The notes below the pieces were generated by a model that saw only the letters and a program-made list of their open reading frames with translations, made no database searches and was not told where the DNA came from. Position numbers and translations under genes: made by a program. Below, piece after piece: positions 234 through 39,537 of a stretch of 64,000 bases of DNA (within the stretch, counting starts at the first letter, position 1; each line of letters starts with the position of its first letter). The stretch is from an uncultured bacterium (GTDB lineage: Bacteria; Eisenbacteria; RBG-16-71-46; CAIMUX01; WJJG01), in the NCBI GenBank assembly GCA_964612295.1, contig CAZTDY010000005.1:1-64000 (forward strand). The letters run 5' to 3'.

Positions 234-1211
234 ATGTCGAAGGAGAAGTCCCACATCCCAATTATCCCGCGCCAGGATTCATCAGGACGACGCTGGACAG
301 TCTATGCTGGATTGTTGGCACCCTGGAACCTGAGCCAACCGATTCGACCGAGTGGATCGGTGAGTGCGGGGAAGGTCTCGCCGGAGCAACTGCACTATTT
401 CCAGCTTCAGGAGCAGCTCCAGAAGGTCCGTCATGTGCGCGGGCTCGTGGAGGATCGGCTTGAGCGGGCATTCTCTTCGTACCAACGAGAGAAACCTACT
501 CCGGCCACAGATGTGTTCCATTGCCTGGTATGTGCCGGCGGCAGCGAGGGGCAGCGATCCATGGCGGAGCGGACGTTTGCAGCCGAGGACATGGCAACGG
601 ATTTCAAGGACGCTGTTCGCCAGTCCCAACCCATCGGCGACCGCGTGGAGAATGGTCTGCTCAGCTTGGTGGGGGAAGCCTCGCTGCTCCACCTGCTGCG
701 GGATGACTCTGCGCTAGAGTATCGAGATGGCGTGGAGCTGACCATCTGTCCGATCGGCCGCCGGCCCTGGTCGGATGACGATGATGATCCGATGATCCTG
801 GTTCAGCGGTGGCTACGCCGCCTACTCGGCTGTGGGCTGCCCGTGGAGATCTCCAAGAACGACGATCGTGGGCCGATACGGGTGAAAGGACTGGCGGCGC
901 AATCGCTCATTACCGCGATGGGGGGAACCCATCTGCTGCTCTGGGGATCTGCCGGCTTCACGCCGATTCGCATCGAAACCGAGGAAGGGCCCTCGACCGC
1001 ATCAACCCCTCCCAACAATGGCCCCCTAAGCCACCCTGTCAGCTATGTGTTCAACTGGGAGGAGCGGGGTAGAGAACTCCTGAGTCCGGTGGCCGATCTG
1101 CGTACCGGCTCTGTGTTGGTCAATCGGGATCCCTCCTACCTGCAGCGGCGAGTGTTCCTCCTGACTGCACTCGCAGTTCCGCCGGTGTTCCTTTCGGGGG
1201 AGGGGGTATGA
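234..1211 (+). CDS. Hypothetical protein, translationally coupled to the downstream ClpB-like ATPase through an ATGA overlap. The 5' end is uncertain: the alternative frame 152..463 carries a signal peptide and a strong RBS (see findings).
   Basis: Long ORF with high GC at third codon positions from about nt 370 onward. Its stop overlaps the start of the next gene. I recognised no domain. Confidence 0.5.
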   Translation: MSKEKSHIPIIPRQDSSGRRWTVYAGLLAPWNLSQPIRPSGSVSAGKVSPEQLHYFQLQEQLQKVRHVRGLVEDRLERAFSSYQREKPTPATDVFHCLVCAGGSEGQRSMAERTFAAEDMATDFKDAVRQSQPIGDRVENGLLSLVGEASLLHLLRDDSALEYRDGVELTICPIGRRPWSDDDDDPMILVQRWLRRLLGCGLPVEISKNDDRGPIRVKGLAAQSLITAMGGTHLLLWGSAGFTPIRIETEEGPSTASTPPNNGPLSHPVSYVFNWEERGRELLSPVADLRTGSVLVNRDPSYLQRRVFLLTALAVPPVFLSGEGV

Positions 1212-3541: not shown

Positions 3542-4198
3542 GTGTGGTGGGCCCATGCTATGAATCAACACGAGAAGTTGCATACGCACGGGAATGGCGC
3601 CGATGGACGGAAGGGTAGTCACGTGTCTAAGCCGAATCACAGGGCGGAATCCAGGCTGTTCCTCTGCCTCGACGATTTGCAGACAGCAGTTCGTCAGGGA
3701 GAGCGCTTCAGCTACGTCCTCTTCAGAGGACATCGTTCTCGCCGAGGCAGTGCGATCGGCCCGGAGTGCCTGTCCCAGTGGTATCATGCGGAATTCGTGG
3801 TGGATGATGTACCATACCCTACTGCCGAACACTTCATAATGGCGGAGAAGGCGCGATTGTTCGGAGATGCGGAATCGGAGAGGGCGATCCTCAGCGCCAC
3901 GTCGCCGGCTGCAGCCAAGCGATTGGGGAGGCAGGTGCGGGGTTTCAAGGAAGATCTCTGGCTGCGCCAACGCTTCGGCATCGCGGTGAGAGGTAATCGC
4001 GCGAAGTTTGGTCAGAATGGGGGACCGAAGAGATTTCTTCGCTCGACAGGCTCGAAGATCCTGGCCGAGGCCAGTCCTCACGACCGGATCTGGGGTATCG
4101 GACTTGGGCCGGGTGACCCCGGCGCGAAACACCCCCGCAAGTGGAAAGGTCTCAACCTGCTCGGTTTTGTGCTGATGCAAGTCAGACACGATCTTTGA
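3542..4198 (+). CDS. NADAR-domain protein (YbiA-like; ADP-ribose or riboflavin-intermediate N-glycosidase family).
   Basis: Motifs 'FRGH...WYHAEF...YPTAEHF(I)MAEKARLFGD', 'AKRLGRQVRGF' and 'DRIWGIGLG...NLLGFVLMQVR' are typical of NADAR/DUF1768. Confidence 0.75.
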   Translation: MWWAHAMNQHEKLHTHGNGADGRKGSHVSKPNHRAESRLFLCLDDLQTAVRQGERFSYVLFRGHRSRRGSAIGPECLSQWYHAEFVVDDVPYPTAEHFIMAEKARLFGDAESERAILSATSPAAAKRLGRQVRGFKEDLWLRQRFGIAVRGNRAKFGQNGGPKRFLRSTGSKILAEASPHDRIWGIGLGPGDPGAKHPRKWKGLNLLGFVLMQVRHDL

Positions 4199-4428
4199 GC
4201 ATGGGCCGGAGACCATAGTGACGGGAACATGGCGACGTGGCTCACCGCACTGACGTTCCGAATTTCCTGAAAACCCCGCCCCTTTCATCCCAAGACTACA
4301 ACCATGTGCCCATGCGCCCGTGACGATTTGGAGATCGCGACTTGATCGTGGCACATCACTTGCACAAAAGGGCGCCAGTGACAATTTGGCTCTGCTACCA
4401 GTCCAGCGGCGGCTGCAGGCAGTCCGAA

Positions 4429-4569
4429 ACAGGGGACACCCTGCCGAGGATGGGTTCCGAATGTCGTCCCGTGTCTGGTTTCTAACCTGGGGTGGGGCAC
4501 CATACAGAATGCCGAAAGGCGGCGCGGACAGTAAATCCGTTGGGGGTTCGATTCCCCTCCTCTGTTCCA
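4429..4569 (+). ncRNA. tRNA-like element with a canonical T-arm (GGGGGTTCGATTCCCCT), a 7-bp acceptor-like pairing (ACAGGGG / CCTCTGT) and an encoded CCA. At about 141 nt it is too long for a tRNA and too short for a tmRNA. It may be a degenerate tRNA/tmRNA fragment or a structured ncRNA.
   Basis: GGTTCGATTCC T-loop consensus at 4544-4554 and CCA at 4567-4569. It lies in a 780-bp gap with no credible ORF. The cloverleaf could not be completed by eye. Confidence 0.2.
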
Positions 4570-4979
4570 ACCAAGAGGTCCCTGGGGTGAACGGGGAAGA
4601 GCCTTCACCAGGCCGGGGTCCGATGCTCGGTTGCCGCGATCTGGGGGATCAGTGCCGCAGCTGCGCAAAGCGACCGCCGATCGGCGGCCGCGATGCACAC
4701 TGCGCGGATTGATCGCTGGATTCGCCGCTTCCAGGCGGGAGACCACACCCAAGCGCCTTGCAGCGTGAGGATGCCGGTCATGCGCACCATCTCGATTCGC
4801 GGGAGGGCCTTGAGTCTCCCGGAAAGCGAGAAGAGTCCGCATGACCTCAATCACGCTCCGCGCGACAGGTGAGGCAAGAGGTGACTGGATCTTCCCCGGG
4901 ATCCCGAAGGGTGTGGTGCAGTGGTGATCCAGGAGATGAGCGTGGACGAGGACGATCAACGCCGGAAAGGAGAGATAGG

Positions 4980-6086
4980 ATGTTCTTCCGAAAGAAGTTT
5001 ACGATTCCCAAGGACAGTTGTGGATTTCAGTTCGAAAAGGAGGAGTTCGTAGGGCTGCTGGAATCGGGCGATCACATGATCCGCACCTGGCGGCGCAGCC
5101 CGCGCGTTGAGCTCTCCTCGATGGCTTCCCCGTGGGTGTCGGACGTCGACCTGGAACAGGTTGTTCGCGCCGGAGCCTTCGATGAAAGAGTGCAAGTGCT
5201 GGACTTGAACGACTTCGAGCGCGGACTAGCCTGGGTGGACGGCCGCTTCGACCGTTTCCTGGGCCCCGGGCTGCACGCCGTTTGGACCAATGTGCGCGAT
5301 GTGCGGGTTGAACGCATCGACGCGCGTCTTCTGCGGCTTGCGCGCGATGATCTGGCGCTGCTGCTGAACGCGGCGGGTGCGGATGAGTTCCTTCAGAGCT
5401 TCCCTGTCCCGGAGAACTGGGTGGGGCTGCTGCATGTGAACGGCCAGTTCCGGGAAGTGCTGGACACTGGTCAGCACGTCTTCTGGAAGGGACTCGCCAA
5501 ACTGGAGGTCGAGCAAGTCTCGTTCAAGGAGTTCCAGCTCGACGTGTCCGGGCAGGACATCATGACCCGCGACAAGGTCACCCTGCGGGTGAATGCCGTG
5601 GTGACCGCGCGTGTTGATGATCCTAGGAAGTCCGTTGCAGTCAGTGAGGATGGACGGCAGGCGCTCTACAGAGAGGCTCAGCTCGCTCTGCGCACCGTCG
5701 TGGGCGGCCGGACCCTCGATGAGTTCCTGCAGGACAAGGAGCAGGTCGCGAACGAGTGGCGCCAATCGCTCGAGTCTGCGGCCGAGGCACTCGGGCTCGC
5801 ATTGCGCTCAGTCGGTGTCCGCGATGTCATCCTGCCGGGTGACATGAGGGAATTGCTGAACAAGGTCACCGAGGCGGCCAAGGCGGCCGAGGCCAACTTC
5901 ATCTCCCGGCGGGAGGAAACTGCTGCGATGAGGAGTCAGGCCAACACTGCCCGGCTGTTGGAGAACAACCCAACGCTGATGCGTCTCCGCGAGCTGGAGT
6001 CTCTTGAGCGAATCGCCAAGGAGTCCAACCTGCAGCTCGTCCTGGGCGAACAGGGGTTAGTGGAGCGGATCAGCAAGCTGCTGTAG
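4980..6086 (+). CDS. SPFH / band-7 (stomatin/prohibitin/HflKC-like) domain protein.
   Basis: Band-7 core plus a C-terminal coiled-coil ('...VILPGDMRELLNKVTEAAKAAEANFISRREE...'). SD AAGGAGAG lies 6 nt before the ATG at 4980. Confidence 0.8.
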   Translation: MFFRKKFTIPKDSCGFQFEKEEFVGLLESGDHMIRTWRRSPRVELSSMASPWVSDVDLEQVVRAGAFDERVQVLDLNDFERGLAWVDGRFDRFLGPGLHAVWTNVRDVRVERIDARLLRLARDDLALLLNAAGADEFLQSFPVPENWVGLLHVNGQFREVLDTGQHVFWKGLAKLEVEQVSFKEFQLDVSGQDIMTRDKVTLRVNAVVTARVDDPRKSVAVSEDGRQALYREAQLALRTVVGGRTLDEFLQDKEQVANEWRQSLESAAEALGLALRSVGVRDVILPGDMRELLNKVTEAAKAAEANFISRREETAAMRSQANTARLLENNPTLMRLRELESLERIAKESNLQLVLGEQGLVERISKLL

Positions 6087-6240
6087 ACTGGGCCCGGACC
6101 GAGGGCTGCCTGCGCCGTGATTGGGGCAGGTGGCCCCGGTCTGAGGCCGGCTCCGTTGATGTCACGAGCCACATGGAGTGACCTGCGTGGTCCGCGCGAC
6201 CGCGCTGTGTTGACGGATGGAAACCGCGAGGAGGTGAGGG

Positions 6241-6987
6241 ATGCTCGACCGAGAGCTTACCAGGGCGCCGATGAGAACAAGAACTCTCATCGTAGTGCTC
6301 CTCGCCTTGCTGCCTTTGGGTGGAGTGCTCCGCGCGCAGGATGATCGCCCGCACGCGGCTACCTATACCCACGCGCTCTCGACCGCACGGCAGATGAGGG
6401 ATACATTGCGCAGTCGTCTCGCGCAGGCTGAAACTGATTCCGCGCGAGCAGCGATTGAGGAGGAAGCAGGCAACCAGCTGACGTCAATCGTCTGCGAGAT
6501 TCTGCTGCCGGCATGGATCGATACCCCGTGGAGTTTCGATGGGATGACGGTTCAACCGGGCGAAGGCACCATCGCCTGCGGCTACTTTGTGACGACCCTT
6601 CTGAGGGACGCGGGATGTGCCCTGGATCGTATCAGACTGGCGCAGGTTCCGTCTGAGACGATGATCCGGGAACTGCTGGCACCGGAATCCATCCAGCGGT
6701 TCAGCGACACGCCGATTGATCGGTTCCTGCGATCGGTGCTTGAGTCGGGGCCTGGGCTCTTCATTGTCGGACTGGATTGCCACGTGGGGTTCATCCGGTG
6801 CGATGGCAGCAACGTGCGATTCGTCCATTCATCCTACATGTCGCCCTGGCGTGTTGTGGATGAACCGGCGCGCCAGTCGAGAATCCTGGCCGGGTCTCGG
6901 TATCGCGTTCTCGGGAAGCTGGCCAATGACGAGGTATTCCTGAACTCATGGCTCGTGGCTGAATCCGTACCTGCTGCACCCAGGTAG
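6241..6987 (+). CDS. Secreted hypothetical protein with a signal peptide. Conserved Cys and His residues hint at a possible papain-like/CHAP-like fold.
   Basis: N-terminal 'RTRTLIVVLLALLPLGGVLRAQ' and SD GGAGGTGAGGG. No confident domain match. Confidence 0.55.
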   Translation: MLDRELTRAPMRTRTLIVVLLALLPLGGVLRAQDDRPHAATYTHALSTARQMRDTLRSRLAQAETDSARAAIEEEAGNQLTSIVCEILLPAWIDTPWSFDGMTVQPGEGTIACGYFVTTLLRDAGCALDRIRLAQVPSETMIRELLAPESIQRFSDTPIDRFLRSVLESGPGLFIVGLDCHVGFIRCDGSNVRFVHSSYMSPWRVVDEPARQSRILAGSRYRVLGKLANDEVFLNSWLVAESVPAAPR

Positions 6988-7020
6988 GAGGGATGTCAGT
7001 GACAGCAGGGAGGACTCAAC

Positions 7021-7800
7021 GTGTCAGCTCACGACCGAATCGCAGACGTTCTCGCTTCAATTGAGAACTACGAAGACGTCCGCATCCTCTACGCCTGTGA
7101 GTCCGGGAGTCGTGGTTGGGGCTATCCGTCAAAGGACAGTGACTATGACGTCCGCTTTGTCTATGCCAAGCCTCTGGATTGGTATCTCGCGGTTGAGCTC
7201 GACCGCCAGTCCGATGTCATAGAACGAGGCGTGACCGGTGACCTGGATGTGAGCGGTTGGGATTTGAAGAAGACGCTGTTCTTGCTTGCGAAGTCGAATC
7301 CCCCGCTCCTCGAGTGGCTCAGCTCACCCATCGTCTACCATGATCGGGACGCGTTCGGAGCCCGCCTTCTCGAGTTGGCAAGCCAGACCTTCTCGGCGAA
7401 GGCCTCAGCCTACCACTACGGGCGAATGGCCAAGCAGAACCACGACCGGCTCCGGCGTGACCCCAACTGCTCTGCCAAGTTGCTCCTCTACATTCTCCGG
7501 CCTCTCTTCGCGCTTCGCTGGCTGGCGGAGCGAAGGGCCATCGTGCCCATGTCATTCGACACAATGGTGGAGAGTTGCTCTGATGATGAATCGGTCAAGA
7601 CCGCCATCCGGGACCTTGTTGACAGGAAGCGATCAGGCGACGAAGGGGATCGAGCGAGAGACCATACCCGGATTCTTGAATTCATCGATCAGGAGATTGA
7701 ACGAGTCGACGAGGCAATCACATCCCACGACGGTCAGCCCGCGGGTTTCGAGGCTGTGAACCGGTTCTTCAGGAGCGAGCTGCAGCGCGTGTGGGCCTGA
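7021..7800 (+). CDS. Predicted nucleotidyltransferase of the RlaP / pfam10127-like family, which often accompanies RNA ligases.
   Basis: 'LYACESGSRGWGYPSKDSDYDVRFVY' is a Pol-beta-superfamily NTase signature (GS...D.D). GTG start with SD AGGGAGGA. Confidence 0.65.
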   Translation: MSAHDRIADVLASIENYEDVRILYACESGSRGWGYPSKDSDYDVRFVYAKPLDWYLAVELDRQSDVIERGVTGDLDVSGWDLKKTLFLLAKSNPPLLEWLSSPIVYHDRDAFGARLLELASQTFSAKASAYHYGRMAKQNHDRLRRDPNCSAKLLLYILRPLFALRWLAERRAIVPMSFDTMVESCSDDESVKTAIRDLVDRKRSGDEGDRARDHTRILEFIDQEIERVDEAITSHDGQPAGFEAVNRFFRSELQRVWA

Positions 7801-7832
7801 GATCGCCGAAGCGTGGAAACGTTGGGCGCCAG

Positions 7833-9257
7833 CTACTCGCCATCCTCGGACATATCCCGCCGGTAGGCCTTCACCTCTTCACGAGCCAGATTCAACCCTT
7901 CAACGAGGTCGGAAATCACCCCATCCAATTGGGCCTCGTAGCAGCGGTCTAGGATTGGTCCGAAGTGTGGTCCTGGGGCCAGCCCAAGCTGGATCAGATG
8001 CCGACCCATGACGATGGGGACTGGGCCACACTGTTCGACCTCTAAGTCGCGAGCTTTCTCGATCAGCCATTCTCCCGCAGGGAACGTGTCAACCGTGCGT
8101 GGGGGCCGGCCACGCTGATCGGCCTTGGCGACGCGAACCAGCCGATCGATCCGCCCAACCCGCCTCGCCAGGCGCCGGATGGCAGGTGCCTGCGACTTGC
8201 TGTCGTACAGCTCGACCGGGCTCAGGTGATTCCTGACGAGGGGCACCACCTGTTCAGCAAGGTCGCTTTGTCTCGTCAGCCGGGCCAAGAAGCTGCGCGT
8301 GGGCTCCTCCCCGCGCCCCTCGTGCCCATGAGATCGATACCGACCGTTGGCGAACTCGGTCGTAGCAGGCTTGCCGAAGTCGTGGCACAGCACCGCGAAG
8401 CCGACCACCAAGTCCTCCCAGGCTTCGCCAACCCGCTCTTCGGCATAAGCGTTCAGACAGTGCAGGGTGTGATTCCAGACGTCGCCTTCGGGGTGCCAGC
8501 CTGGATCCTGTGGGCAGTCGATCAGTGCGGCCAGCTCCGGGAAGTAGTGTACCCAGCCGGTATCACGCAGGAAAGCAAGCCCCCTGGAGATGCGCACGCC
8601 CTTGAGGATGAGCTTGCGCCACTCTTCGAGAAGCCGCTCCGAAGGCAGCCCTTCAGGCTCGATTCCGCGGCACAGCTCAATGGTCTCCGCGGCGGCCTCC
8701 AAGTCGAAGCGCGCAGCAAACTGCATTCCCCGCAGAACACGTAACGGATCCTCGGCGAATTGATGGGACACGTGGCGCAGGATTCCCAATTCCAGATCGC
8801 GGCGTCCGTGATAGTGATCGATCACCTCGAAGGTGAGTGGATCAAATGCGATCGTGTTTATCGTGAAATCGCGCCGCGTAGCTGCCTCCGCCACGGTCAT
8901 GTTGGGGTCCGAGAGGATCTGGAATCCGCGGTGGCCCCGCCCGGCTTTCGATTCTCTGCGGGGAATGGAAACGTCGATCTCGAGTCCTGACAGCTTCACG
9001 ACGCCGAAGGACCTACCGACGAGATCCAACTTGAATTGCTGCTCCAATCCTGCGAGCAGGTCCTCCGCCGGGACGCCATAGGCCTCGATGTCGATATCGC
9101 GCGCTGCGTGGTTGAGGAGGGCGTCGCGAACGGAGCCGCCCACGATAAGGGCGCGGCCTCCGAGATCACGCGTCAATCGGCACACGGAGTCGACTGCCGC
9201 CTCGAGCGGCGGATCATCGAGTTTCAGTCTGAAGGGTGACGTATGTGTCATGGTCAC
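7833..9257 (-). CDS. cca: CCA-adding enzyme: tRNA nucleotidyltransferase with a C-terminal HD domain.
   Basis: 'LIVGGSVRDALL...DIDI' polymerase-beta head, 'RRDFTINTIAFD', and an HD motif 'LCHDFGK'. GTG start with SD AGGAG. Confidence 0.8.
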   Translation of the reverse strand: MTMTHTSPFRLKLDDPPLEAAVDSVCRLTRDLGGRALIVGGSVRDALLNHAARDIDIEAYGVPAEDLLAGLEQQFKLDLVGRSFGVVKLSGLEIDVSIPRRESKAGRGHRGFQILSDPNMTVAEAATRRDFTINTIAFDPLTFEVIDHYHGRRDLELGILRHVSHQFAEDPLRVLRGMQFAARFDLEAAAETIELCRGIEPEGLPSERLLEEWRKLILKGVRISRGLAFLRDTGWVHYFPELAALIDCPQDPGWHPEGDVWNHTLHCLNAYAEERVGEAWEDLVVGFAVLCHDFGKPATTEFANGRYRSHGHEGRGEEPTRSFLARLTRQSDLAEQVVPLVRNHLSPVELYDSKSQAPAIRRLARRVGRIDRLVRVAKADQRGRPPRTVDTFPAGEWLIEKARDLEVEQCGPVPIVMGRHLIQLGLAPGPHFGPILDRCYEAQLDGVISDLVEGLNLAREEVKAYRRDMSEDGE

Positions 9258-9418
9258 GATGGCTCCTGCAGCATACGATCTGCATAGCCTAGCATTGCTG
9301 TCGGTTCTTGGTCCAACTCCGAAGCCGATTCTGACGAAAATGATGCGCGCCGGAGGGCAATACCGAAGGGTATGATTGCCACGCAGCCGATTGAGCGTTG
9401 GATGCAGAGGATGGTGTG

Positions 9419-9976
9419 ATGTCGACGAGGAAGTTCATCATATTCGATCTCGAAGCCACCTGTTGGGAAAAGGGCTCCTGGCCCGACAGAATGGAGATCA
9501 TCGAGATTGGGGCGGTGCGGGTCCGCGAGGATGACTGGAGCTGTGAGGACGAGTTCTCACGCTTCGTCCAACCTATTGGAGAACCGATCCTGAGTGACTT
9601 CTGCATGACGCTGACCGGCATCCGGCAGGAGGATGTGGATGAGGCGAAGTCCTTCCCCGAGGTTCTGAACGAGTTTCTTCGCTGGACGGGGACCGGGGAA
9701 CAGGTCTGGATGTCGTGGGGAATGTACGATAGGCGACAGATCGAGCATGACTGTCGCCGGCATCGCATCGCTGTGCCTCAGATCCTTGAATCGCACATGA
9801 ACCTGAAGGCCATCTTCACAGAGGTCACCGGGGTACGCAGAGCCGGGATGAAACGAGCCCTGCAGGTGCTGGGGCTGCCCTTGGAGGGGTCGCACCACCG
9901 CGGTCTGGATGACGCTCGAAACATCGTTGCAATCGGCAAGAAGGTGTGGCCTGAGTATCAGCGTGATGCTGAGTGA
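9419..9976 (+). CDS. DEDDh-family 3'-5' exonuclease (DnaQ / ERI-1 / KapD-like).
   Basis: Exo motif I 'FIIFDLEATC', motif II-like 'WMSWGMYDRRQIE', and motif III 'HRGLDDARN'. Confidence 0.75.
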   Translation: MSTRKFIIFDLEATCWEKGSWPDRMEIIEIGAVRVREDDWSCEDEFSRFVQPIGEPILSDFCMTLTGIRQEDVDEAKSFPEVLNEFLRWTGTGEQVWMSWGMYDRRQIEHDCRRHRIAVPQILESHMNLKAIFTEVTGVRRAGMKRALQVLGLPLEGSHHRGLDDARNIVAIGKKVWPEYQRDAE

Positions 9977-10020
9977 TGTTCTGGGGACGAGAGACAGCTG
10001 GTTGAGGGGGGAGCCCTGCT

Positions 10021-10875
10021 ATGGCACTCCGGGGCCGAGAACTACGAGCCGCAATCGCGCGAGAGACAGTGGAGATTCTCTTGCGGGGTCACTACGGATT
10101 GCCATCTGGTGATCGCGTTGAGATAGGCAGAGAACGGGATAGTTGCGTAGCAGACACACGCCACTTCAGGCCGGCGGAATTGAACCAGGTGTTGGCGCAA
10201 GCTAAAATGGCCTCAGCGGGTCATCAGCAGATGCTGGTGGAGGTCAGAGAGGAATCAACACTCTTGGCCGCGCAGTCCCTGTCGGTGGAATGCGACGAGG
10301 CGCGTATTGGCGTGCTGAACTTCGCCTCGGCAAGGCATCCGGGGGGCGGTTTCCTGAAGGGGGCCGACGCGCAAGAGGAGTCGTTGGCCCGAAGCTCGGG
10401 ACTATACCTGAGTCTTCTAGAGTGTCGGACATATTACGACGGCCAACGAGGATCCCGGGATGGCCTGAACACGGATGACATGATCTGGTCGCCTGAATGC
10501 CCCGTGGTGCGCGATCATGACGGGACGTTGTTGGACCGGCCGTATCTCGTCGACTTCATCACGAGCACAGCGCCCAATGTTTCGTCGAGGGCTGCAAAGC
10601 GGCAGCCAGCGCCATCAGAGGTGCTTGAGGCGCTGAAGCTGCGGATCGGCAAGATTCTGGCTCTCGCTGCACACCACGAGTGTACTCACTTGGTGTTGGG
10701 AGCCTGGGGCTGTGGTGTGTACGCGAATGATCCCACGGAGGTGGCAGCAGCCTTCTACGGCCACCTCAGGCCCAAGAAAGGGATGTTCTGGGGCCGATTC
10801 GAAAAGGTGATCTTCGCGATCGCGCCGGACGGTCCGAAGCGCAATCTCGACTGTTTCCGCCGGCGATTCTGCTAA
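10021..10875 (+). CDS. Bacterial-type poly(ADP-ribose) glycohydrolase-like macrodomain protein (DUF2263 / TIGR02452 family).
   Basis: 'HPGGGFLKGADAQEESL' matches the PARG catalytic signature GGG-X6-8-QEE within a macro-like fold. Confidence 0.7.
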   Translation: MALRGRELRAAIARETVEILLRGHYGLPSGDRVEIGRERDSCVADTRHFRPAELNQVLAQAKMASAGHQQMLVEVREESTLLAAQSLSVECDEARIGVLNFASARHPGGGFLKGADAQEESLARSSGLYLSLLECRTYYDGQRGSRDGLNTDDMIWSPECPVVRDHDGTLLDRPYLVDFITSTAPNVSSRAAKRQPAPSEVLEALKLRIGKILALAAHHECTHLVLGAWGCGVYANDPTEVAAAFYGHLRPKKGMFWGRFEKVIFAIAPDGPKRNLDCFRRRFC

Positions 10876-10896
10876 GAGAGACGATAGGATCGACAG

Positions 10897-11538
10897 ATGG
10901 AACCCAAGAGAGTCAAGTACCCGCGCACACCTCATCTCCCATGGTCGCCCGGGCGAACCAGCGACGATGTTCTGATCGAATCGCTAAGTGCCCTCAGAGC
11001 GCAAACTGAGGTCGTCGTCACGGAGAAGCTTGATGGAGAGAACACAACGCTCTACCGCGATCGGCTTCACGCTCGAAGCATTGACTCCAGCGCACACGAG
11101 TCGCGTGACTGGGTGAAGGCGCTTCATGCGCGTGTTCGGCACCAGATCCCCTCCAGCATGCGGGTATGCGGAGAGAACGTGTTTGCAGTTCACAGCATCG
11201 AGTATGATGCCCTTCCTTCGTTCTTCTTGGCATTCGGGATCTACGTGGATGAGCAGTGCATCGCGTGGGACGACACAGTGAAATGGGCCGCCAAGCTCGG
11301 GCTTTCGCACGTGCCGGTTCTCTACCGGGGGCCGTGGACGGATGCCGCAATCCAAGCCTGCTGGCAAGGCGTGTCAGCATTTGGCCCCGAACAAGAGGGG
11401 TATGTAGTGCGTGCGGTAGGCGACTTCGCAATGGCTGACTTCGGGTCGCGCGTTGCCAAGTACGTGCGCCCTTGTCACGTGACCTCTGAGAAGCACTGGA
11501 AGGCGGGGCCAGTCCGGCGAAACCGTCTTGCCCGCTGA
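10897..11538 (+). CDS. ATP-dependent RNA ligase (pfam09414 RNA_ligase-like, small Rnl family).
   Basis: N-terminal 'KYPRTPHLPWS' and nucleotidyltransferase motif I 'EKLDGEN' (KxDG). About 213 aa. Confidence 0.7.
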   Translation: MEPKRVKYPRTPHLPWSPGRTSDDVLIESLSALRAQTEVVVTEKLDGENTTLYRDRLHARSIDSSAHESRDWVKALHARVRHQIPSSMRVCGENVFAVHSIEYDALPSFFLAFGIYVDEQCIAWDDTVKWAAKLGLSHVPVLYRGPWTDAAIQACWQGVSAFGPEQEGYVVRAVGDFAMADFGSRVAKYVRPCHVTSEKHWKAGPVRRNRLAR

Positions 11539-11563: not shown

Positions 11564-11605
11564 GGGGAGGGGCATATCTGACACCCCCCCCGGGGATCCC
11601 CCCCC
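11564..11605. terminator. GC-rich hairpin: GGGGAGGGG ... CCCCCCCC GGGG AT CCCCCCCC, with alternative pairings possible. Possible terminator after the RNA ligase gene.
   Basis: Read directly from the sequence. There is no U-tract. Confidence 0.25.
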
Positions 11606-11847
11606 GTGAGTTCCTCGTCCTAACAGCTTCCGTCGTTGGCAATTGCGATTCGTGCGACACCTCGCTATGATCAACCCAAGCTTGAGGCGAAGTACCCTGG
11701 TGGCACGTGAATTGTCTCACTACTGAGCATGGGATCCAGGAGGGCGGAGTCAAAGCGGTCGTGCACCGAGCCCGGTTGGGAAAGCCCCCGAGATTCGAGC
11801 CGCGAGGGTCCCGAAGGCGGTTGGAGAGAGCCTAGAAAAGGCGGACG

Positions 11848-14800
11848 ATGAGTTCTGGCGCACTCACATTCATCATTGCATGCACCTTCGTCGTGGGCAT
11901 GTTGATCTATCGGCTGATCGAGGGATCGCAGCGGAATCGCCCCCCTGAATTGCTAGATGAGGAGACCCCCAGTATGCCAGAGGAGAACTCGTCGAATCCA
12001 CGGTTGCAGGCGATCAAGAACGCGATGCCTCTGTTTGAGAGCGAGTTCATTCTACCGTCCGAGCTTGAAGAGGTCTATGCTTTCGAGTCGACAATGGCCA
12101 AGCTGAATGAGGCCTACTCGCAGGCGGACCTAGAGGGCCTCCTGATCAATGCAGACGTGCGGGTAACATGCCTGGTTCTGGCAGCACTGGCTCGCAGATC
12201 AGATGAGGATCTTCAAACCCACAAGGTTCTCCGCCAACTAGATATCAACAACACCTTCGTTACCCACTTCTGTCTGCAGACGCTGCTCAAGCGCGTTCCT
12301 CCGGAGACTCCTCTAGTCGGGGCGGTGATTTCCCGCAATCTGGACTCATGGACGGGGGACTTCCAGGCGCTACTCGATGATTTCATCGAGCAGCGCGTCG
12401 AACAAGGCGAGGAGATATCCGAAGAGACGCTTTTCCCCACGAGTCCGTCGCTGAGTGAGGAAGGCCGAACACAGCTGCTGCTAGTCCTCAAGCGAGCACA
12501 TCCACGCTCGTACAGGCGAGTCAGCAAAGAGCTGTCGAGGTTCGGGGCAAAGCCAGGGCATCGTGAGGAGGTTTCCCAAGGGGCGGAAACCGAGTTTTCG
12601 TTGGGGCGGGTCTGGAGCAAACGAACACTGGGCGACCATGGTTTCATTGACCACGAACAGACAAGTGAACCGCTTGAGCGCCTGGTTGAGAGCCTGAAGA
12701 AGGGTCGCCATAGCTCATTCGTGATTGCGGGCCAGCCCGGCGTAGGCAAGACGAGTCTGATTCGCGAAATCGCCAGGAGAGTAAGCGGGAAGCTGCGTTT
12801 CCTGGAGGTTGCTCAGGATGAACTGGTCGCCGGCGAAGGATTGATGGGAACGATGGAGAAGCGCCTTCAGACCCTTCTCGCTGAACTTGCCGAGGACGGT
12901 GAGACTGTGCTGTACCTGCCCGATATCCACGAGTACGTGTGGGCCGGACAGCACATGCACAGCACCGTCGGTCTGCTCGACCTTCTCATGAGGGCGATGG
13001 AGTCTCGAGGGCTCATCGTGATTGGAGAAACTGATCAACTAGGCCTGGAGCAGCTCTTGAGGGACCGTCCTAGGGCCAAGGATCACTTTCAGATCGAACG
13101 GCTGACATCCGTGACGCCGGAAGTCGCGCTGGATGTTGCCTTGCAGAGTATCCAGCGGCGACATGAACGCCATGCCGGCCCGACGATCTCGCAAGAGGTT
13201 GTCCGGGAGGCAGCTCAGCTTGCCAGTCAGTACATGAGCGATCTCGGGGCGCCAGGCAGTGTGCTTCGATTGCTCAATCTTGCGATCGATCAAAGAACGA
13301 AAGGCGCTCGGCGTGTTATTGACGTCGAGGTTTCTCGGGACGACGTCATGGAAGCCCTCAGGGTCCTCACTGGTCTTTCAGCTGTTGTCCTTGATGACCA
13401 GCTCAAGCTCAACCTCGACCGTACGAACAGCTTCTTCGAGAAGAGGGTTCTGGGGCAACCCGAGGCGACAACATGCCTCATTGACCGAATCGCAATGATC
13501 AAGGCCGGCTTGGGTGATTCAACTCGACCTTTGGGCGTGTTCTTGTTTGCCGGACCTACTGGAACCGGGAAGATCGAGCTGGCTAAGGCGCTGGCGGAGT
13601 TTCTCTTCGGCGATCCCAACCGAATGGTGCGGCTCGACATGAGCGAACTTCAGTCGCACGATGCAATGGCAAGGATTTTCGGAGGCGCCCAGAGGGATGC
13701 GTCCGGTGCATCCTTGACCGAGCGGATCAGACAGCAACCGTTCTCCGTAGTCCTTCTCGACGAGTTCGAGAAGGCCCCCGCTGAAGTCTGGAACATGTTC
13801 CTCCAGGTCTTCGATGACGGTAGGCTAACTGACAATGCAGGCCGAACGGCAGATTTGCGCCATGCGATCATAATCCTGACTACTAACCTAGGGGGCAAGA
13901 TACCTGGTGGAGCGACGCTGGGCTTCACGAAGGATCATTCAGACTTCAGGCCCGAGGCCGTAGAACGTGCGATCATCGACGCGTTTCCGAGGGAGTTCTT
14001 CAATCGCATCGATCGTATGCTTGTTTTCCGCCCCCTGAGCCGGCAGACCATGCGGCAGATCCTCGACAAGGAGTTGAAGGATGTGTCGCGTCGGCGAGGG
14101 CTCCGTTGGCGTGATTGGGCGATCGAGTGGGATGAGAGCGCGTTCGAGTTCTTGCTTGAAAGGGGAATCACCAGGGATCTTGGGGCCAGACCCTTACGTC
14201 GGGCGATCGAACGCTACTTCCTGACTCCTCTTTCCAGGCTGATCGCGCAGGGGCAGGCGCCGCACGGGGATCAGTTCCTCTTTGTCCGCGCAAAGCGAGG
14301 ACAGCTGGTTCTTGATTTCGTTGATCCCGACGCACCCTTTGGCGAGGTCGAGGAGAGTGCGCGCGTTCATGGGAGCGAGCGCAGCAGCGATGAAGATGTT
14401 CCGGTCGAAGAGGTCGTCTGCAATCCACGAGGAGTCCCCAGTGAGGTGACCGCTCTCGAGAGACGTTGCCAGCCACTGCGTGAGACCATCGCGGGGGATC
14501 AATGGTCGGAACGCAAGACAGAGTCTATGGGACGGATGTCAGAGCCGGGCTTTTGGGACTCGGACGATCGTTTTCGCATCCTGGGTGAGGTGGAGTTCCT
14601 CGACCGTGCTGAACGAGTGTTCGCGCGGACCGAGTCGCTTCTTGCGCGGCTTCAGGGGCGATCTGAGCGTAGCCTCATCGATCGTAAGCTGGTGAGGCAG
14701 GTGGCCCAGAACCTCTACTTGCTCGAGACGGCTTGCACGGACTTTGAGGACGACCGGCCTCAGGAGGCTTTCCTGCAAATCGAGGTTGCCCTGCAAGAGC

Positions 14801-15321
14801 ACGGTGAGGACCGTCTGAAGAGCGCGATGAACTGGGGTCAGGACCTGTGCACGATGTATCGTTCCTGGGCCAAGAAGCGTGGCATGCACTGGCAAGAGCT
14901 TGACCGAGGAACTGGCGATCGGGCGCACAATCGAGAGCTATTCGCCGTATCTGGTTTTGGTGCGCACTCCATTCTCGCACCGGAAGCCGGGCTCCATGTT
15001 CTTGAGATGCCGCGTGAAAACGAGCCCGGAGTTGATCGATGCAGGGTTCGGGTGTGCGTTGCACCTCATACGGGACAGCCGCCTGCAGGTGCGTCGCCCG
15101 CCGAAAGAAGCAGGGAGCTCCTTGCCAGAGCCAAGGCTGCATTTGCGGACCAATCCACCGAGGGGCTCACGGTGGTGCGAAGCTACCGTCGTGGGGAAAC
15201 TCCGTCGACTCGAGACGCTGTCCGAGGCTGGCGCACAAGCAAGGTCGAACGCGTGCTGGCAGGAGACTTTGACGTGATAGGAGCGTCATCCAGCAATGCC
15301 GACCCTCAGCTGCGGGAATGA
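11848..15321 (+). CDS. Membrane-anchored ClpB-like double-AAA+ ATPase fused to a C-terminal release-factor-like module (RF domain 2 and C-terminal helix present, GGQ domain absent).
   Basis: N-terminal hydrophobic helix 'ALTFIIACTFVVGMLIY'. Walker A motifs 'IAGQPGVGKTS' and 'FLFAGPTGTGKIELAKALA', plus 'GARPLRRAIERY'. The C-terminal roughly 190 aa ('AFLQIEVAL...MYRSWAKKRGMHWQEL...AGLHVLEM...RCRVRVCVAP ... VVRSYRRGETPST...VERVLAGDFDVIG') aligns with RF2 'FLEIQAG...MYLRWAE.RGFK.E...GVHRLVR...RHTSFSSAFVYP ... [13 protein letters not shown]...[12 protein letters not shown]'. Confidence 0.8.
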   Translation: MSSGALTFIIACTFVVGMLIYRLIEGSQRNRPPELLDEETPSMPEENSSNPRLQAIKNAMPLFESEFILPSELEEVYAFESTMAKLNEAYSQADLEGLLINADVRVTCLVLAALARRSDEDLQTHKVLRQLDINNTFVTHFCLQTLLKRVPPETPLVGAVISRNLDSWTGDFQALLDDFIEQRVEQGEEISEETLFPTSPSLSEEGRTQLLLVLKRAHPRSYRRVSKELSRFGAKPGHREEVSQGAETEFSLGRVWSKRTLGDHGFIDHEQTSEPLERLVESLKKGRHSSFVIAGQPGVGKTSLIREIARRVSGKLRFLEVAQDELVAGEGLMGTMEKRLQTLLAELAEDGETVLYLPDIHEYVWAGQHMHSTVGLLDLLMRAMESRGLIVIGETDQLGLEQLLRDRPRAKDHFQIERLTSVTPEVALDVALQSIQRRHERHAGPTISQEVVREAAQLASQYMSDLGAPGSVLRLLNLAIDQRTKGARRVIDVEVSRDDVMEALRVLTGLSAVVLDDQLKLNLDRTNSFFEKRVLGQPEATTCLIDRIAMIKAGLGDSTRPLGVFLFAGPTGTGKIELAKALAEFLFGDPNRMVRLDMSELQSHDAMARIFGGAQRDASGASLTERIRQQPFSVVLLDEFEKAPAEVWNMFLQVFDDGRLTDNAGRTADLRHAIIILTTNLGGKIPGGATLGFTKDHSDFRPEAVERAIIDAFPREFFNRIDRMLVFRPLSRQTMRQILDKELKDVSRRRGLRWRDWAIEWDESAFEFLLERGITRDLGARPLRRAIERYFLTPLSRLIAQGQAPHGDQFLFVRAKRGQLVLDFVDPDAPFGEVEESARVHGSERSSDEDVPVEEVVCNPRGVPSEVTALERRCQPLRETIAGDQWSERKTESMGRMSEPGFWDSDDRFRILGEVEFLDRAERVFARTESLLARLQGRSERSLIDRKLVRQVAQNLYLLETACTDFEDDRPQEAFLQIEVALQEHGEDRLKSAMNWGQDLCTMYRSWAKKRGMHWQELDRGTGDRAHNRELFAVSGFGAHSILAPEAGLHVLEMPRENEPGVDRCRVRVCVAPHTGQPPAGASPAERSRELLARAKAAFADQSTEGLTVVRSYRRGETPSTRDAVRGWRTSKVERVLAGDFDVIGASSSNADPQLRE

Positions 15322-16402: not shown

Positions 16403-18667
16403 CTACCGCACGACGATCACCCGCTCCGTCCGCCAATCGCCCAGAAGGCCGAGCCGGATGAAGTAAGCGCCCGCCGCAACGTCTCGACCTGGGGCGTCAC
16501 GTCCATCCCAAGAAGTGAAGTGTGTCCCCGTCGGTCGCCAACCGCTGGGCAATCTCCGCACCAACCGGCCGGCGGCATCGAGAACGTGAAGGTCGATCCG
16601 TCCTGGCTCTGCCAAGTCGTAGTGAATCGAGAGGGCCGCGCCACCTGTTGCCGCGGGGCAGAACAGACTTGGGCTGCAGCGGAGCGAACGGCACGGTTCC
16701 AGCGAGTCGTCACCGCTTGGGTCCACGAATGCCATGCTCTCATCCAGAATCCCGATTCCGTCATAGGTGGCGACCCAGAGATGTCCCTGTGCATCGGTCA
16801 CCATGCTCCGCGTGACGACTCCGGGGAGCCCAGAGGTTCCAACCCCGTAGTTTCTCCAGCCGACTCCGTCGAATCGGGAAATGCCATCCCACCGACTGCC
16901 GAACCACTTCACGCCTTGCGGGTCGATGTGGACCGAGTAGATCCGATATCCCCGCAGTCCTGAGTTTTCGGGGTTGTAGACGGTCCACTCGGTTCCGTCG
17001 AAGTGTGCGACCCCCCCGCCGTAGGTGCCGATCCAGAGGCTTCCATCAAGATCGAAATCGACGGCGCAGACCTCGTGATGCGGAAGGCCGGAGTTCTCCA
17101 CGGTGTAGATCGTCCACTCGGAGCCGTCGAATCGCGCCAAACCGCTGGAGGTGCCGATCCAGAGCGCACCGTCGGGGGCGATCTCTATGCACGCAACCCT
17201 CAGAGAAAAGACCAGGCTGTTGGTGTCTTCGATCACGAGCCACTCCGAGCCGTCGAACCTGACCAGCGCGCCCCAGTCGCCGTGATCATCGATCACGGAG
17301 AACCAGATCGCTCCATCGGGGTCCGCGGTCACGGTGGAGACCGCGTCATAGGGCATCGGGCAGTTGCTGCTGTCGTAGAGGGTCCAATCCGTGTGATCGA
17401 AATGCACGAGGCCGATGCGGGTCCCCAGCCAGAGATCGCCCGTGTCCCCCAAGGCCACATCATCGACGCCGTCGGTGGGCAGGCCTGAATTCTCCATCGT
17501 GTAGACGGTCCAATCGGCATTCTCGCACCGCGCGAGCCCGCCGTCGTGCGTGGCGAACCACTTCGCTCCGCCCGGCTCCTGCTCCATATCGCTGATGTAG
17601 TTCGACGGCAGTCCGGAGTTGCTGACGTTGTATGTCTCCCAATCTGCGTCGTCGAAGCGGCACAGGCCGCCGCCCAGTGTGGTCAGCCACTTCCGTCCTT
17701 GCGCATCCAGCACCACGCTCGAGAGTTCATCGCTGGCGATGTCGGAGTTGCCGGTGTCGAACACTGTCCAGTTGGTGTCATCGAAACGGGCCAGCCCGCC
17801 GCCGTGCGTTCCGATCCACTTGACGTTCTCATCATCGATACAGACTGCGTGGACCCACAGGTGCGGCAGGTCGGAGTTGTCCGGATTCCAGGTGGTCCAG
17901 GTGGAACCGTCGTAGCGCGCCAGGCCACCGCCCCACACGTATCCGTTGCTGGCGCTGCTGGTGCCGATCCACTTCACGCCTAGCCCGTCGATTGCGATGG
18001 CGCGAACCTCGTTTTGCGGGAGGCCGGAGTTGTCGACGTCGTAGATGTCCCAACTCGAGCCGTCGAAATGGGCCAGGCCTTCAAAGGTGCCCATCCAGAT
18101 CGATCCGTCTGGATCGAGCGTGATCGTGTAGATGTTGTCGTTGGGCAGCGGTGAGTTGTGCGAATCATAGACGGTCCAGGTGTCATCATCGAAACGCGCC
18201 AGCCCATCGAAGTGGGTTCCGATCCACTTCGTGCCGTCCTCGTCGATTGCGAGGCTGCCGATGCGCTTTCCCGGCAGGCCGGAGTTCTCCGGCGTATAGA
18301 CGTGCCAATTGGAGCCATCGTAGGTGGCCAGTCCGGCGGGGACGTGAACCGAGGTGGGGTAGGTGCCCACCCACAGAACACCCGCATCATCCACGGCGAG
18401 GGCGCTGACCATGTTCGACAAGAGCCCCGAGTTGGCGGTCGTCATGACCTCGAACTCGCCGGTCGCCCGGTCGAGCCGCACAAGACCACCGGAGGTCCCC
18501 AGCCACGAGATGTCACCGACCATCAATTGGCAACTGATGCGGTCCGAGTTGGTGAACTGCGTCCACTCAGGGTATTCGGCGAAACTTGGTGAGATGACGA
18601 CCAGCGGCGCGATCAGCAATGCGCAAAGCGCGCAGAGAACCCGACGGGAGATGCGGCCAGCATACAT
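16403..18667 (-). CDS. Secreted beta-propeller protein built from two-component-regulator-propeller (Reg_prop) repeats, with a T9SS C-terminal sorting domain.
   Basis: At least ten repeats of 'W(I/V)GT..GGLARFD...W..Y...NSGLP'. Signal peptide 'MYAGRISRRVLCALCALLIAPLVV' and strong SD GGAGGGAG. The C-terminus 'GAYFIRLGLLGDWRTERVIVVR' is T9SS-CTD-like. Confidence 0.8.
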   Translation of the reverse strand: MYAGRISRRVLCALCALLIAPLVVISPSFAEYPEWTQFTNSDRISCQLMVGDISWLGTSGGLVRLDRATGEFEVMTTANSGLLSNMVSALAVDDAGVLWVGTYPTSVHVPAGLATYDGSNWHVYTPENSGLPGKRIGSLAIDEDGTKWIGTHFDGLARFDDDTWTVYDSHNSPLPNDNIYTITLDPDGSIWMGTFEGLAHFDGSSWDIYDVDNSGLPQNEVRAIAIDGLGVKWIGTSSASNGYVWGGGLARYDGSTWTTWNPDNSDLPHLWVHAVCIDDENVKWIGTHGGGLARFDDTNWTVFDTGNSDIASDELSSVVLDAQGRKWLTTLGGGLCRFDDADWETYNVSNSGLPSNYISDMEQEPGGAKWFATHDGGLARCENADWTVYTMENSGLPTDGVDDVALGDTGDLWLGTRIGLVHFDHTDWTLYDSSNCPMPYDAVSTVTADPDGAIWFSVIDDHGDWGALVRFDGSEWLVIEDTNSLVFSLRVACIEIAPDGALWIGTSSGLARFDGSEWTIYTVENSGLPHHEVCAVDFDLDGSLWIGTYGGGVAHFDGTEWTVYNPENSGLRGYRIYSVHIDPQGVKWFGSRWDGISRFDGVGWRNYGVGTSGLPGVVTRSMVTDAQGHLWVATYDGIGILDESMAFVDPSGDDSLEPCRSLRCSPSLFCPAATGGAALSIHYDLAEPGRIDLHVLDAAGRLVRRLPSGWRPTGTHFTSWDGRDAPGRDVAAGAYFIRLGLLGDWRTERVIVVR

Positions 18668-18883
18668 AGCTCCCTCCAATTTTTCAGCTGTCAGCACTCG
18701 AGCAAATCGTACTTTTCGCGTGTGCAATCCGTCTATAAGGGTAGAGGATGGCATCGTCCCTGTCCATCTTGTCGACAGGGAGCGGAAACGCGACTACACT
18801 AACAACATGACACCCCAGTAGCTGGCCATTGGAATGTAGCACGCCGCGTATGTGTGTAAGCGCCATTGAACTGGAGGTGAGCC

Positions 18884-27286: not shown

Positions 27287-27577
27287 TAGTTATGGCAGCG
27301 ACCCTCCCCGTCCACCGGGCGGGGCATCGGTCTCTCTATTCCCATCGGCAATCGCCGCCGCCATCTGGATCTACAGCCTTCCGGCGCCGAAGTTGCCAAC
27401 CCCTCCCGCGCAAAGGATAGGCGCCAAGGCTGCCGATCGTTCCAGGTGAGCCAAGGACTTCGATTCAAACAACATCCTGCCTACCGGCAGGGGACACAGG
27501 GAGGTGTCCAGGTGCCGGAAAAGCGCTGTCATCTACCAGCGTGCCCTCGATTCGGGCGCGCCTGGTTCATTCGATTG

Positions 27578-39280: not shown

Positions 39281-39537
39281 GTTCTCACCTACGCGACGGT
39301 TGTTCTCCAGGATCTTGTCTAGTCCACATACATTATAGCACGTTGGGGGGGGTCTCACAATGTGCCCCCGGGCACGGAAGCTGTTGTACCGCAAGTGGAT
39401 ACAGGTGTCAGCAGTGTGGGAGGCGGGGGCGGAATAGGCCTAAGACGGCGAACACCGCCAGCAGGGTCGCCGGCGGCGCTCGCAAAAGTCAGTTCTGCGT
39501 GGGCGTGGTCCGGAAGCAGCCCTATCGCCCGGGGCGG

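Follow-up and report, generated by a model that had tools for sequence, protein, structure and literature searches.

A membrane-anchored double Clp-type ATPase fused to a release-factor-derived module in an uncultured bacterium

What kind of machine does a bacterium build when a Clp-type AAA+ ATPase and part of a peptide-chain release factor (RF) are encoded as one polypeptide? The question is raised by an open reading frame (ORF) on a contig from an uncultured bacterium (GTDB lineage Bacteria; Eisenbacteria; RBG-16-71-46; CAIMUX01; WJJG01; NCBI GenBank assembly GCA_964612295.1, contig CAZTDY010000005.1). The whole stretch of DNA that was analysed, positions 1 to 64,000 of the forward strand, is referred to here as the window. 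An earlier annotation made from the letters alone, called below the sequence-only reading, had proposed that the ORF at 11848–15321 encodes a membrane-anchored, ClpB-like unfoldase ending in a non-hydrolysing, stop-codon-recognising module. The ORF and all of the motif strings quoted in that proposal were found in the translation. The gene product is a membrane-anchored double Clp-type AAA+ module fused to a release-factor-derived module, and the fusion is genuine and conserved. The protein is classified as a Clp/Hsp100 ATPase bearing a novel targeting module, and any function proposed for it below is only one that we infer.

A gene of this composition might be an assembly or frameshift artefact, in which the RF-like region is in fact a separate ORF. 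This explanation was rejected, because the gene DNA is identical in three JGI metagenomes (0 mismatches over the 3348 nucleotides (nt) compared) and because the module lies at the C-terminal end of every long protein (~1050–1290 amino acids (aa)) among the best 150 matches of a profile search, where the short entries resemble contig fragments. Additionally, the identical 1157-aa protein is recorded in NCBI, ENA and Logan (P0215). The profile search covered 1.84 billion representative proteins, one per 50%-identity cluster, and returned at least 392 representatives with E <= 1e-30, a number that rises to 881 with a limit of E <= 1e-10. With a profile that spans RF domains 1, 2 and 4, the best 150 matches have the three kept together. 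The family spans several phyla: named sources are a metagenome-assembled genome (MAG) of Eiseniibacteriota, a Caenarcaniphilales MAG and several MAGs of Alphaproteobacteria, Micropepsaceae among them; a single-sequence scan for related loci returned five genomes. The family is large, bacterial, uncharacterised and usually encoded as a stand-alone gene. Its members are currently annotated as “ClpC” (JGI) or “PCRF domain-containing protein” (the Caenarcaniphilales MAG). The sequence-only reading was not aware of any description of such a fusion, and full-text literature searches likewise brought up no account of a Clp-PCRF fusion. A survey of release-factor evolution (PMC6514570) makes no mention of Clp or Band-7, and the AAA+ passages retrieved from it concern Cdc48.

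From which factor was the C-terminal module taken, and how much of it is left? To judge by its alignments, the module is derived from an RF2-like class-I release factor whose domains 1, 2 and 4 were kept and whose domain 3 was excised. The similarity to RF2 had been predicted correctly, but its extent had not: the RF-like region begins at about aa 864 (nt ~14437) rather than at nt ~14760 and measures about 290 aa rather than about 190, so that RF domain 1 is included. On the 1157-aa protein, Pfam reports AAA at aa 293–405, AAA_2 at 560–723 (E 7e-41), ClpB_D2-small at 730–809 and PCRF (PF03462) at 977–1051. The PCRF match, one of two profile checks that had been suggested, scores 26.8 bits with the whole protein and 30.4 bits when only the C-terminus is searched, the cut-off being 24. 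The other suggested profile, the RF-1 domain (PF00472), has no Pfam match in either the whole protein or the C-terminus. Beyond Pfam, the NCBIfam prfB model aligns its positions 3–191 to aa 869–1052 (E 1.3e-8; 34 bits against a cut-off of 370), phmmer matches RF2 chains of the PDB at E ~1e-4, and the family profile aligns with canonical RF2 at an hhalign probability of 98.7% (E 4.4e-16). The RF fold of domain 1 and of the domain 2/4 superdomain is present.

The catalytic part of the factor has gone. In the hhalign comparison a segment of about 85 aa of RF2 is left unaligned, which means that domain 3, the bearer of the GGQ motif, is wholly deleted. The string RRGETPST, which the sequence-only reading had taken for a replaced GGQ loop, belongs to the “IRSY...” strand of domain 4, and that pairing was a misalignment. 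GGQ was not found in the last 320 aa of 76 of the 78 relatives. Since the GGQ domain is missing, the module is predicted to have no peptidyl-tRNA hydrolase function, and to this extent the description of it as non-hydrolysing stands. The idea of a stop-codon-recognition unit fared worse: among 78 family members, the positions of the codon-reading elements, namely the SPF/PxT loop, the stacking His and the GGxE that tips helix alpha5, vary or are gapped. The residues that are invariant are mostly common to genuine release factors, namely MY..W...R in alpha5, G..A..L..E.G.H, and R.Y...P..V.D....T.....VL.GD.D. Domain 4, which is arginine-rich, is the most conserved stretch of the family.

The ATPase to which this module is attached was compared by means of an alignment, made with the faster settings of MAFFT, of 80 full-length family members and three non-fusion Clp references: P0062 (named ClpC by JGI), P0067 (named ClpA by JGI) and P0065, which is without the ClpP-docking-type loop. 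The two Clp-type AAA+ domains that had been expected, here D1 and D2, are both present, and no Clp_N domain (PF02861) is matched by Pfam in the 1157-aa protein. By these alignments the double AAA+ module resembles ClpA/C more than ClpB; its D1 is degenerate and its D2 ring has no aromatic pore loops. The NCBIfam ClpA model aligns contiguously (aa 275–808 to model positions 193–728), whereas the alignment with Thermus thermophilus ClpB leaps from residue ~389 to 506 and skips the M-domain (~390–505). The label “ClpB-like” consequently does not fit a protein that has no M-domain, aligns contiguously with ClpA and carries an [LIV]GF loop that ClpB lacks. Nor is the motif GARPLRR a mark of ClpB, as had been assumed, since it is a general Clp/Hsp100 sensor-2 motif; its sensor-2 Arg is present in 80 of 80 members.

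Across the family, D1 keeps its P-loop, but the DE of its Walker B motif has become P-[D/N/R/E] (P in 63) and the arginine-finger pair is gone; its pore-loop aromatic is Tyr in 55 and Phe in 14 of the 80 aligned. D2 keeps GPTGTGKT, the Walker B DE, the sensor-1 Asn and the sensor-2 Arg, while its GYVG pore loop is deleted in all 80. The [LIV]GF tripeptide has its Gly in 77 and its Phe in 77 of the 80; it lies opposite SLGF and SIGF of P0062 and P0067, and P0065 is gapped at this position. The window copy retains an intact D2 Walker B (LLDEFEKA). Alone among the 80, it carries Ile at the D2 Walker A position that is Thr in 78 (GKT to GKI, codon ATC, 13573–13575), and Leu at the D1 pore-loop aromatic position (codon TTG, 12841–12843). 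Both changes are identical in the three independent JGI metagenome assemblies, and GKT to GKI together with Tyr to Leu suggests a weakened motor in this copy. For all of these reasons, namely the deleted GYVG, the lost D1 Walker B and arginine fingers and the two changes in the window copy, the word “unfoldase” overstated the case. The PADLOC matches of the protein to DolB, PDC-M37B and TRIP13 probably reflect generic AAA+ similarity; the match to the DolB model, 111 bits, is confined to D2, where the generic AAA_2 model matches more strongly. No DUF6414/DolA-type match occurred among the scanned neighbours, although no search was aimed at DolA.

At the N-terminus, the membrane anchor that had been read from a single hydrophobic helix is supported by the relatives. 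At least 60 of the 80 full-length relatives have a hydrophobic helix directly after the initiator Met, and several others are borderline; the carriers come from Eiseniibacteriota and Alphaproteobacteria MAGs and include many metagenomic members. Lys and Arg average 3.2 in aa 19–40, after the helix, compared with 0.2 in aa 1–6. The conservation of the helix and the enrichment of positive charge behind it support both a start at 11848 and an anchor oriented N-out/C-in. The helix nevertheless depends on the start codon chosen: the JGI gene call for the same protein is 1115 aa long, starts at Met43 (11974) and omits it. A strong Shine–Dalgarno-like GAGGAG precedes Met43 (11959–11976), so that translation from there, giving a soluble isoform without the membrane helix, is possible. 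Behind the helix, an AF2 model of aa 1–285 (pLDDT 84) has a disordered linker that leads into an all-alpha solenoid (aa 51–233). The solenoid has no Pfam or NCBIfam match, and its Foldseek matches are weak (E >= 0.1) and all of the ARM/HEAT/TOG repeat type; a Pfam HEAT_2 match is present in one relative, P0060. P0060 and P0058 have different N-terminal regions without the membrane helix, and their RF-like module is still clear (85 and 234 bits, respectively).

Table 1. Positions of the fusion gene, its parts and its neighbours (window coordinates unless a locus is named).
Feature	Position	Strand	Basis
Fusion gene, 1157 aa: membrane helix, ARM/HEAT-like solenoid, Clp-type AAA+ D1 and D2, RF-like module	11848–15321	+	ATG start
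N-terminal hydrophobic helix, aa 3–27, predicted single-pass anchor, N-out/C-in	11854–11928	+	AF2 helix 3–27; kept in relatives; K/R after helix
All-alpha solenoid N-domain, aa 51–233, ARM/HEAT-like, in place of Clp_N	11998–12546	+	AF2, Foldseek
AAA+ D1, aa ~270–480	12655–13287	+	Pfam, alignments
D1 Walker A GQPGVGKT	12730–12753	+	
D1 pore loop AGEGLMGTMEKR; family aromatic position is Leu here	12829–12864	+	
D1 Walker B equivalent LYLPDI, DE to PD	12910–12927	+	
AAA+ D2 (AAA_2, aa 560–723)	13525–14016	+	Pfam E 7e-41
D2 Walker A GPTGTGKI (family GKT)	13552–13575	+	
Site of deleted GYVG pore loop in D2	13681–13713	+	
LGF tripeptide, aa 691–693, at position of ClpA/ClpC-type ClpP-docking loop	13918–13926	+	Aligned with references
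D2-small domain with sensor-2 GARPLRR	14035–14274	+	Pfam ClpB_D2-small E 9e-17
RF-like domain 1, aa 864–967, helical bundle, FWDS..RF..LGEVEFLDR	14437–14748	+	prfB profile, AF2 helices, hhalign
RF-like domain 2, aa 974–1073, MYRSWAKKRGM (helix alpha5) and GFGAHSILAPEAGLHVLE	14767–15066	+	Pfam PCRF, RF2 alignments
Single helix, aa 1084–1100, where RF domain 3 stood	15097–15147	+	hhalign gap against RF2; AF2 helix 234–250 as numbered in the model
RF-like domain 4, aa 1109–1148, VVRSYRRGETPSTRDAVRGWRTSKVERVLAGDFDVIG	15172–15291	+	Aligned to RF2
RNA-repair and ADP-ribose-removal cassette	3542–11538	.	Pfam; same order in independent assemblies
NADAR	3542–4198	+	Pfam
Band_7 (SPFH)	4869–6086	+	Pfam
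248-aa ORF, no family match	6241–6987	+	
RlaP	7021–7800	+	Pfam
CCA/poly(A) polymerase with HD	7833–9257	minus	Pfam
RNase T	9398–9976	+	Pfam
PARG (microbial)	10021–10875	+	Pfam
RNA ligase, ATP-dependent, PF09414	10897–11538	+	Pfam
325-aa ORF, overlaps 753-aa gene by 4 nt; possible stand-alone relative of RF-like extension	234–1211	+	Alignments, hhalign
753-aa paralogous atypical Clp ATPase, no RF module, far end of island	1208–3469	+	Pfam; identity
Operon of three consecutive paralogous atypical Clp ATPases	L016 3750–12504; L017 3941–12739		

Does the surrounding DNA tell what the protein acts on? Upstream lies an island (Table 1) that pairs two enzymes removing ADP-ribose, NADAR and PARG, with RNA-repair genes. 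Islands of such a kind have been linked to RlaP (PMC12776372; PMC6514570). The sequence-only reading had placed the fusion gene directly behind RNA ligase, CCA-adding and exonuclease genes and had taken this setting as a guide to function. These genes are indeed present, but the setting is not family-wide: a conserved RNA-repair neighbourhood was rejected because it is missing at 11 other family loci, so that the RNA-repair link is local rather than a property of the family. No neighbour gene recurs across all of the loci. Between the RNA ligase and the fusion gene there is a gap of 310 nt with one promoter-like site. Just past the stop codon of the RNA ligase, a C8-GGGGATC-C8 run is found with GGGGAGGGG ahead of it (11565–11609). 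As a terminator, this run is not distinguished from shuffled sequences by its folding energy (z = -0.09), and a consensus scan found none there. A search of the island for tRNA-like or other structured RNA gave 0 genes with ARAGORN and, with Rfam, only a 13-bit chance match.

The far end of the island holds a relative of the ATPase half of the fusion and a possible relative of its RF-like half. The 753-aa paralog is 34% identical to the fusion protein over D1–D2 and has a degenerate D1, no GYVG and a VGF loop, with intact GKT and DE in D2. Over its full length it shares 45% identity with the last gene of a Clp operon of three at L016. This operon and its counterpart at L017 belong to a distant branch (P0063, P0061), and each encodes two proteins of ~1070–1100 aa with C-terminal extensions and one of ~770 aa without; three paralogs per operon suggest mixed rings. 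The 325-aa ORF in front of the 753-aa gene can be aligned to the C-terminal extensions that the first two genes of the L016 and L017 operons encode (P0063, L017 gene 2). A profile of five sequences that includes this ORF matches the RF-like family in the domain 2/4 region (hhalign 87%, E 4e-6). The ORF alone against the RF-like family is not significant (E 0.15), and a homologue search of the indexed database with it returned only itself. Taken together, these alignments suggest that a split version of the fusion may exist in the same island.

What could an RF body without its catalytic domain do for a membrane-bound ATPase? Our tentative preference, to which we would give somewhat less than an even chance, is that the RF remnant docks a membrane-tethered AAA+ motor onto ribosomes. 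Docking without peptide release is suggested by three features together: the ribosome-contacting domains are all kept, the most conserved residues are shared with release factors, and the domain that reaches the peptidyl-transferase centre was cleanly removed. The remnant would still dock at the ribosomal A site or decoding centre through domain 1 and the arginine-rich domain 2/4 scaffold, and it would neither read stop codons nor release the peptide. Docking would bring a membrane-tethered hexameric AAA+ machine to membrane ribosomes that are probably stalled, vacant or damaged; ClpP may take part, a partnership suggested by the [LIV]GF loop. ATP turnover would be sited in D2, to whose small subdomain the RF-like module is attached, and hydrolysis there would remodel, or remove, a component associated with the ribosome. 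A polypeptide could be engaged by the ARM/HEAT domain and by the D1 pore loop with its conserved aromatic residue. The window copy, beside the RNA-repair island, may act on toxin-damaged ribosomes.

Several observations weigh against this proposal. Ribosome binding is a property that we infer from homology. Docking at the A site may have been lost or changed, since the stop-codon-reading elements are not conserved, and the loop equivalent to SPF is often acidic in the family. In ClpA, the D1 pore loops engage substrates and the D2 pore loops power unfolding (PMC8666677); with the GYVG loop deleted, canonical threading through D2 is doubtful. A D2 ring of this type is not a canonical translocase, and delivery to ClpP is doubtful despite the [LIV]GF loop. 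In the window copy, the substitutions would be expected to cripple ATP hydrolysis by D2. Finally, neither RNA-repair nor ClpP nor ribosome-rescue genes were seen as neighbours at the 11 other family loci.

The same facts can be arranged differently, and the explanations are not all mutually exclusive. The RF-derived module may have been exapted as a protein-binding, regulatory or oligomerisation domain with no link to the ribosome; the ATPase would then work on membrane or envelope proteins, as FtsH does, and may deliver to ClpP. The loss of the codon-reading motifs and the deletion of the catalytic domain would be natural here, and so would the conservation of the membrane anchor, of an N-domain of the substrate-binding ARM/HEAT type and of the [LIV]GF loop in a stand-alone gene that has no translation-related neighbours in 11 loci. 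We consider exaptation rather unlikely, however, as the invariant residues are largely RF-shared and the most conserved domain is the arginine-rich domain 4, which is expected if contacts with ribosomal RNA were kept; the retention of the ribosome-contacting domains 1, 2 and 4 as a unit in the best 150 matches speaks in the same direction. A different concern is restricted to the window copy, which may be decayed or no longer a motor, so that it would not hydrolyse ATP and its remaining role would be that of a scaffold, or of a partner of the 753-aa paralog in mixed rings. Its two changes, each unique among the 80 members, fit this picture, as do the intact GKT and DE in D2 of the paralog and the three paralogs per operon of related branches. 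Against decay stands an ORF intact over 1157 codons, with all other motifs kept and an identical sequence in several samples. Decay of the window copy appears improbable, and it would be compatible with the other explanations.

The setting of the gene invites yet another explanation, in which ribotoxins or ADP-ribosylating toxins damage ribosomes, the RF-like module detects these and the ATPase clears them for repair by the cassette. The fusion gene follows the cassette directly on the same strand, a paralogous Clp ATPase and a possibly RF-related small ORF lie at the other end of the island, and the arrangement is identical in independent assemblies. There is also a precedent in PrfH-RtcB, where an RF homologue works with an RNA ligase in ribosome rescue and repair (PMC6514570, PMC9223846, PMC13166195). 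Yet the 11 other family loci are without nearby RNA-repair genes, the gap with its promoter-like site splits the gene from the ligase, and the search of the island turned up neither tRNA-like nor other RNA genes. The module, moreover, is unlike PrfH in having domain 1 and no GGQ. As an account of the whole family a role in RNA damage is distinctly improbable; for the window copy its probability is somewhat higher.

How does docking of a motor by an RF remnant compare with systems that are already known? The fusion protein, as its domains and motifs indicate, is not a release factor, a ClpB, a canonical ClpA/C or a PrfH. With RF1/RF2 (PrfB; PF03462 and PF00472) it shares the PCRF region by profile and the fold of domains 1 and 2/4. 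It differs in the deletion of GGQ domain 3, in the unconserved decoding motifs (SPF loop, GGxE tip, stacking His), and in that the module is a C-terminal appendage on an ATPase of ~1100 aa; without GGQ or decoding motifs it does not qualify as a release factor. The likeness to ClpA/ClpC consists of two contiguously aligned AAA+ modules without an M-domain, the D2 Walker A and B motifs (in the family), sensors 1 and 2, the D2-small domain and [LIV]GF. A canonical ClpA/C is excluded by the degenerate D1, with its lost Walker B and arginine fingers, by the deletion of GYVG and by the absence of Clp_N, whose place is taken by a membrane helix and the ARM/HEAT solenoid; the RF-like module is an addition. 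Over D2, it is ClpB/Hsp104 that gives the NCBIfam model and the PDB chain with the best scores, but the model's 306 bits fall short of the cut-off of 1232, and the M-domain, Clp_N and the pore-loop tyrosines are missing while a ClpP-type loop is present. It is the absence of the M-domain and Clp_N together with this loop that sets the protein apart from ClpB.

PrfH, the RF homologue paired with RtcB2, is the reverse of the fusion module, as it lacks domain 1 and has GGQ. The ligase of the island belongs to PF09414 and not to RtcB, the ligase association is not conserved, and the prfH family gives no match; for these reasons PrfH does not account for the module. In FtsH, helices at the N-terminus tether an AAA+ ring to the membrane on its cytoplasmic face; FtsH differs in having a single AAA+ module fused to its own protease and no ribosome-factor domain. 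To our knowledge, the RF-fold bacterial rescue factors (RF2 with ArfA, ArfB, PrfH) all hydrolyse peptidyl-tRNA, and we know of no bacterial Clp/Hsp100 ATPase with a ribosome-factor domain. The Vms1/ANKZF1 of eukaryotic ribosome quality control is catalytically active. Together with Cdc48/p97 it is the closest working analogy, in which an RF homologue is coupled to an AAA+ ATPase (PMC6514570), as it is here within one chain. It can serve as an analogy only, because Vms1 is a separate polypeptide and a member of the unrelated archaeo-eukaryotic eRF1 superfamily (PMC6514570).

If the analogy is pressed further, the family could be an unrecognised ribosome-quality-control machine, a one-polypeptide counterpart of Vms1-Cdc48 with split and three-paralog versions elsewhere. 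The empty RF body would plug the A site of stalled or damaged membrane ribosomes, and the motor, possibly together with ClpP, would extract or degrade either a ribosomal component or the nascent chain that is jammed. This extended version is doubtful, and we regard it as an unlikely but specific form of ribosome docking. What is present in any case is a family that retains the ribosome-docking body of a release factor, joined to a membrane-anchored AAA+ ring of unusual pore architecture. If ribosome binding is true, translation at the membrane would have a new quality-control route and AAA+ motors a new mode of targeting; if the module was exapted instead, it would be a rare documented reuse of a translation-factor fold outside the ribosome. 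A large family that is hidden under the labels “ClpC” and “PCRF domain-containing protein” is a clear experimental target.

Two minor observations concern the rest of the window. A papain-family protease, two proteins with CotH-kinase and lamin-tail domains (one of them with FlgD_ig) and a Reg_prop/FlgD_ig protein are encoded at 27446–30073, 32912–39394 and 16403–18754; these large proteins are probably secreted and are unrelated to the fusion gene. At the other end, window position 1 is also where two independent ENA assemblies (L019 and L020) begin, and about 64 nt upstream of it a JGI contig comes to an end; this suggests a repeat or a strain-variable region just upstream of the island.

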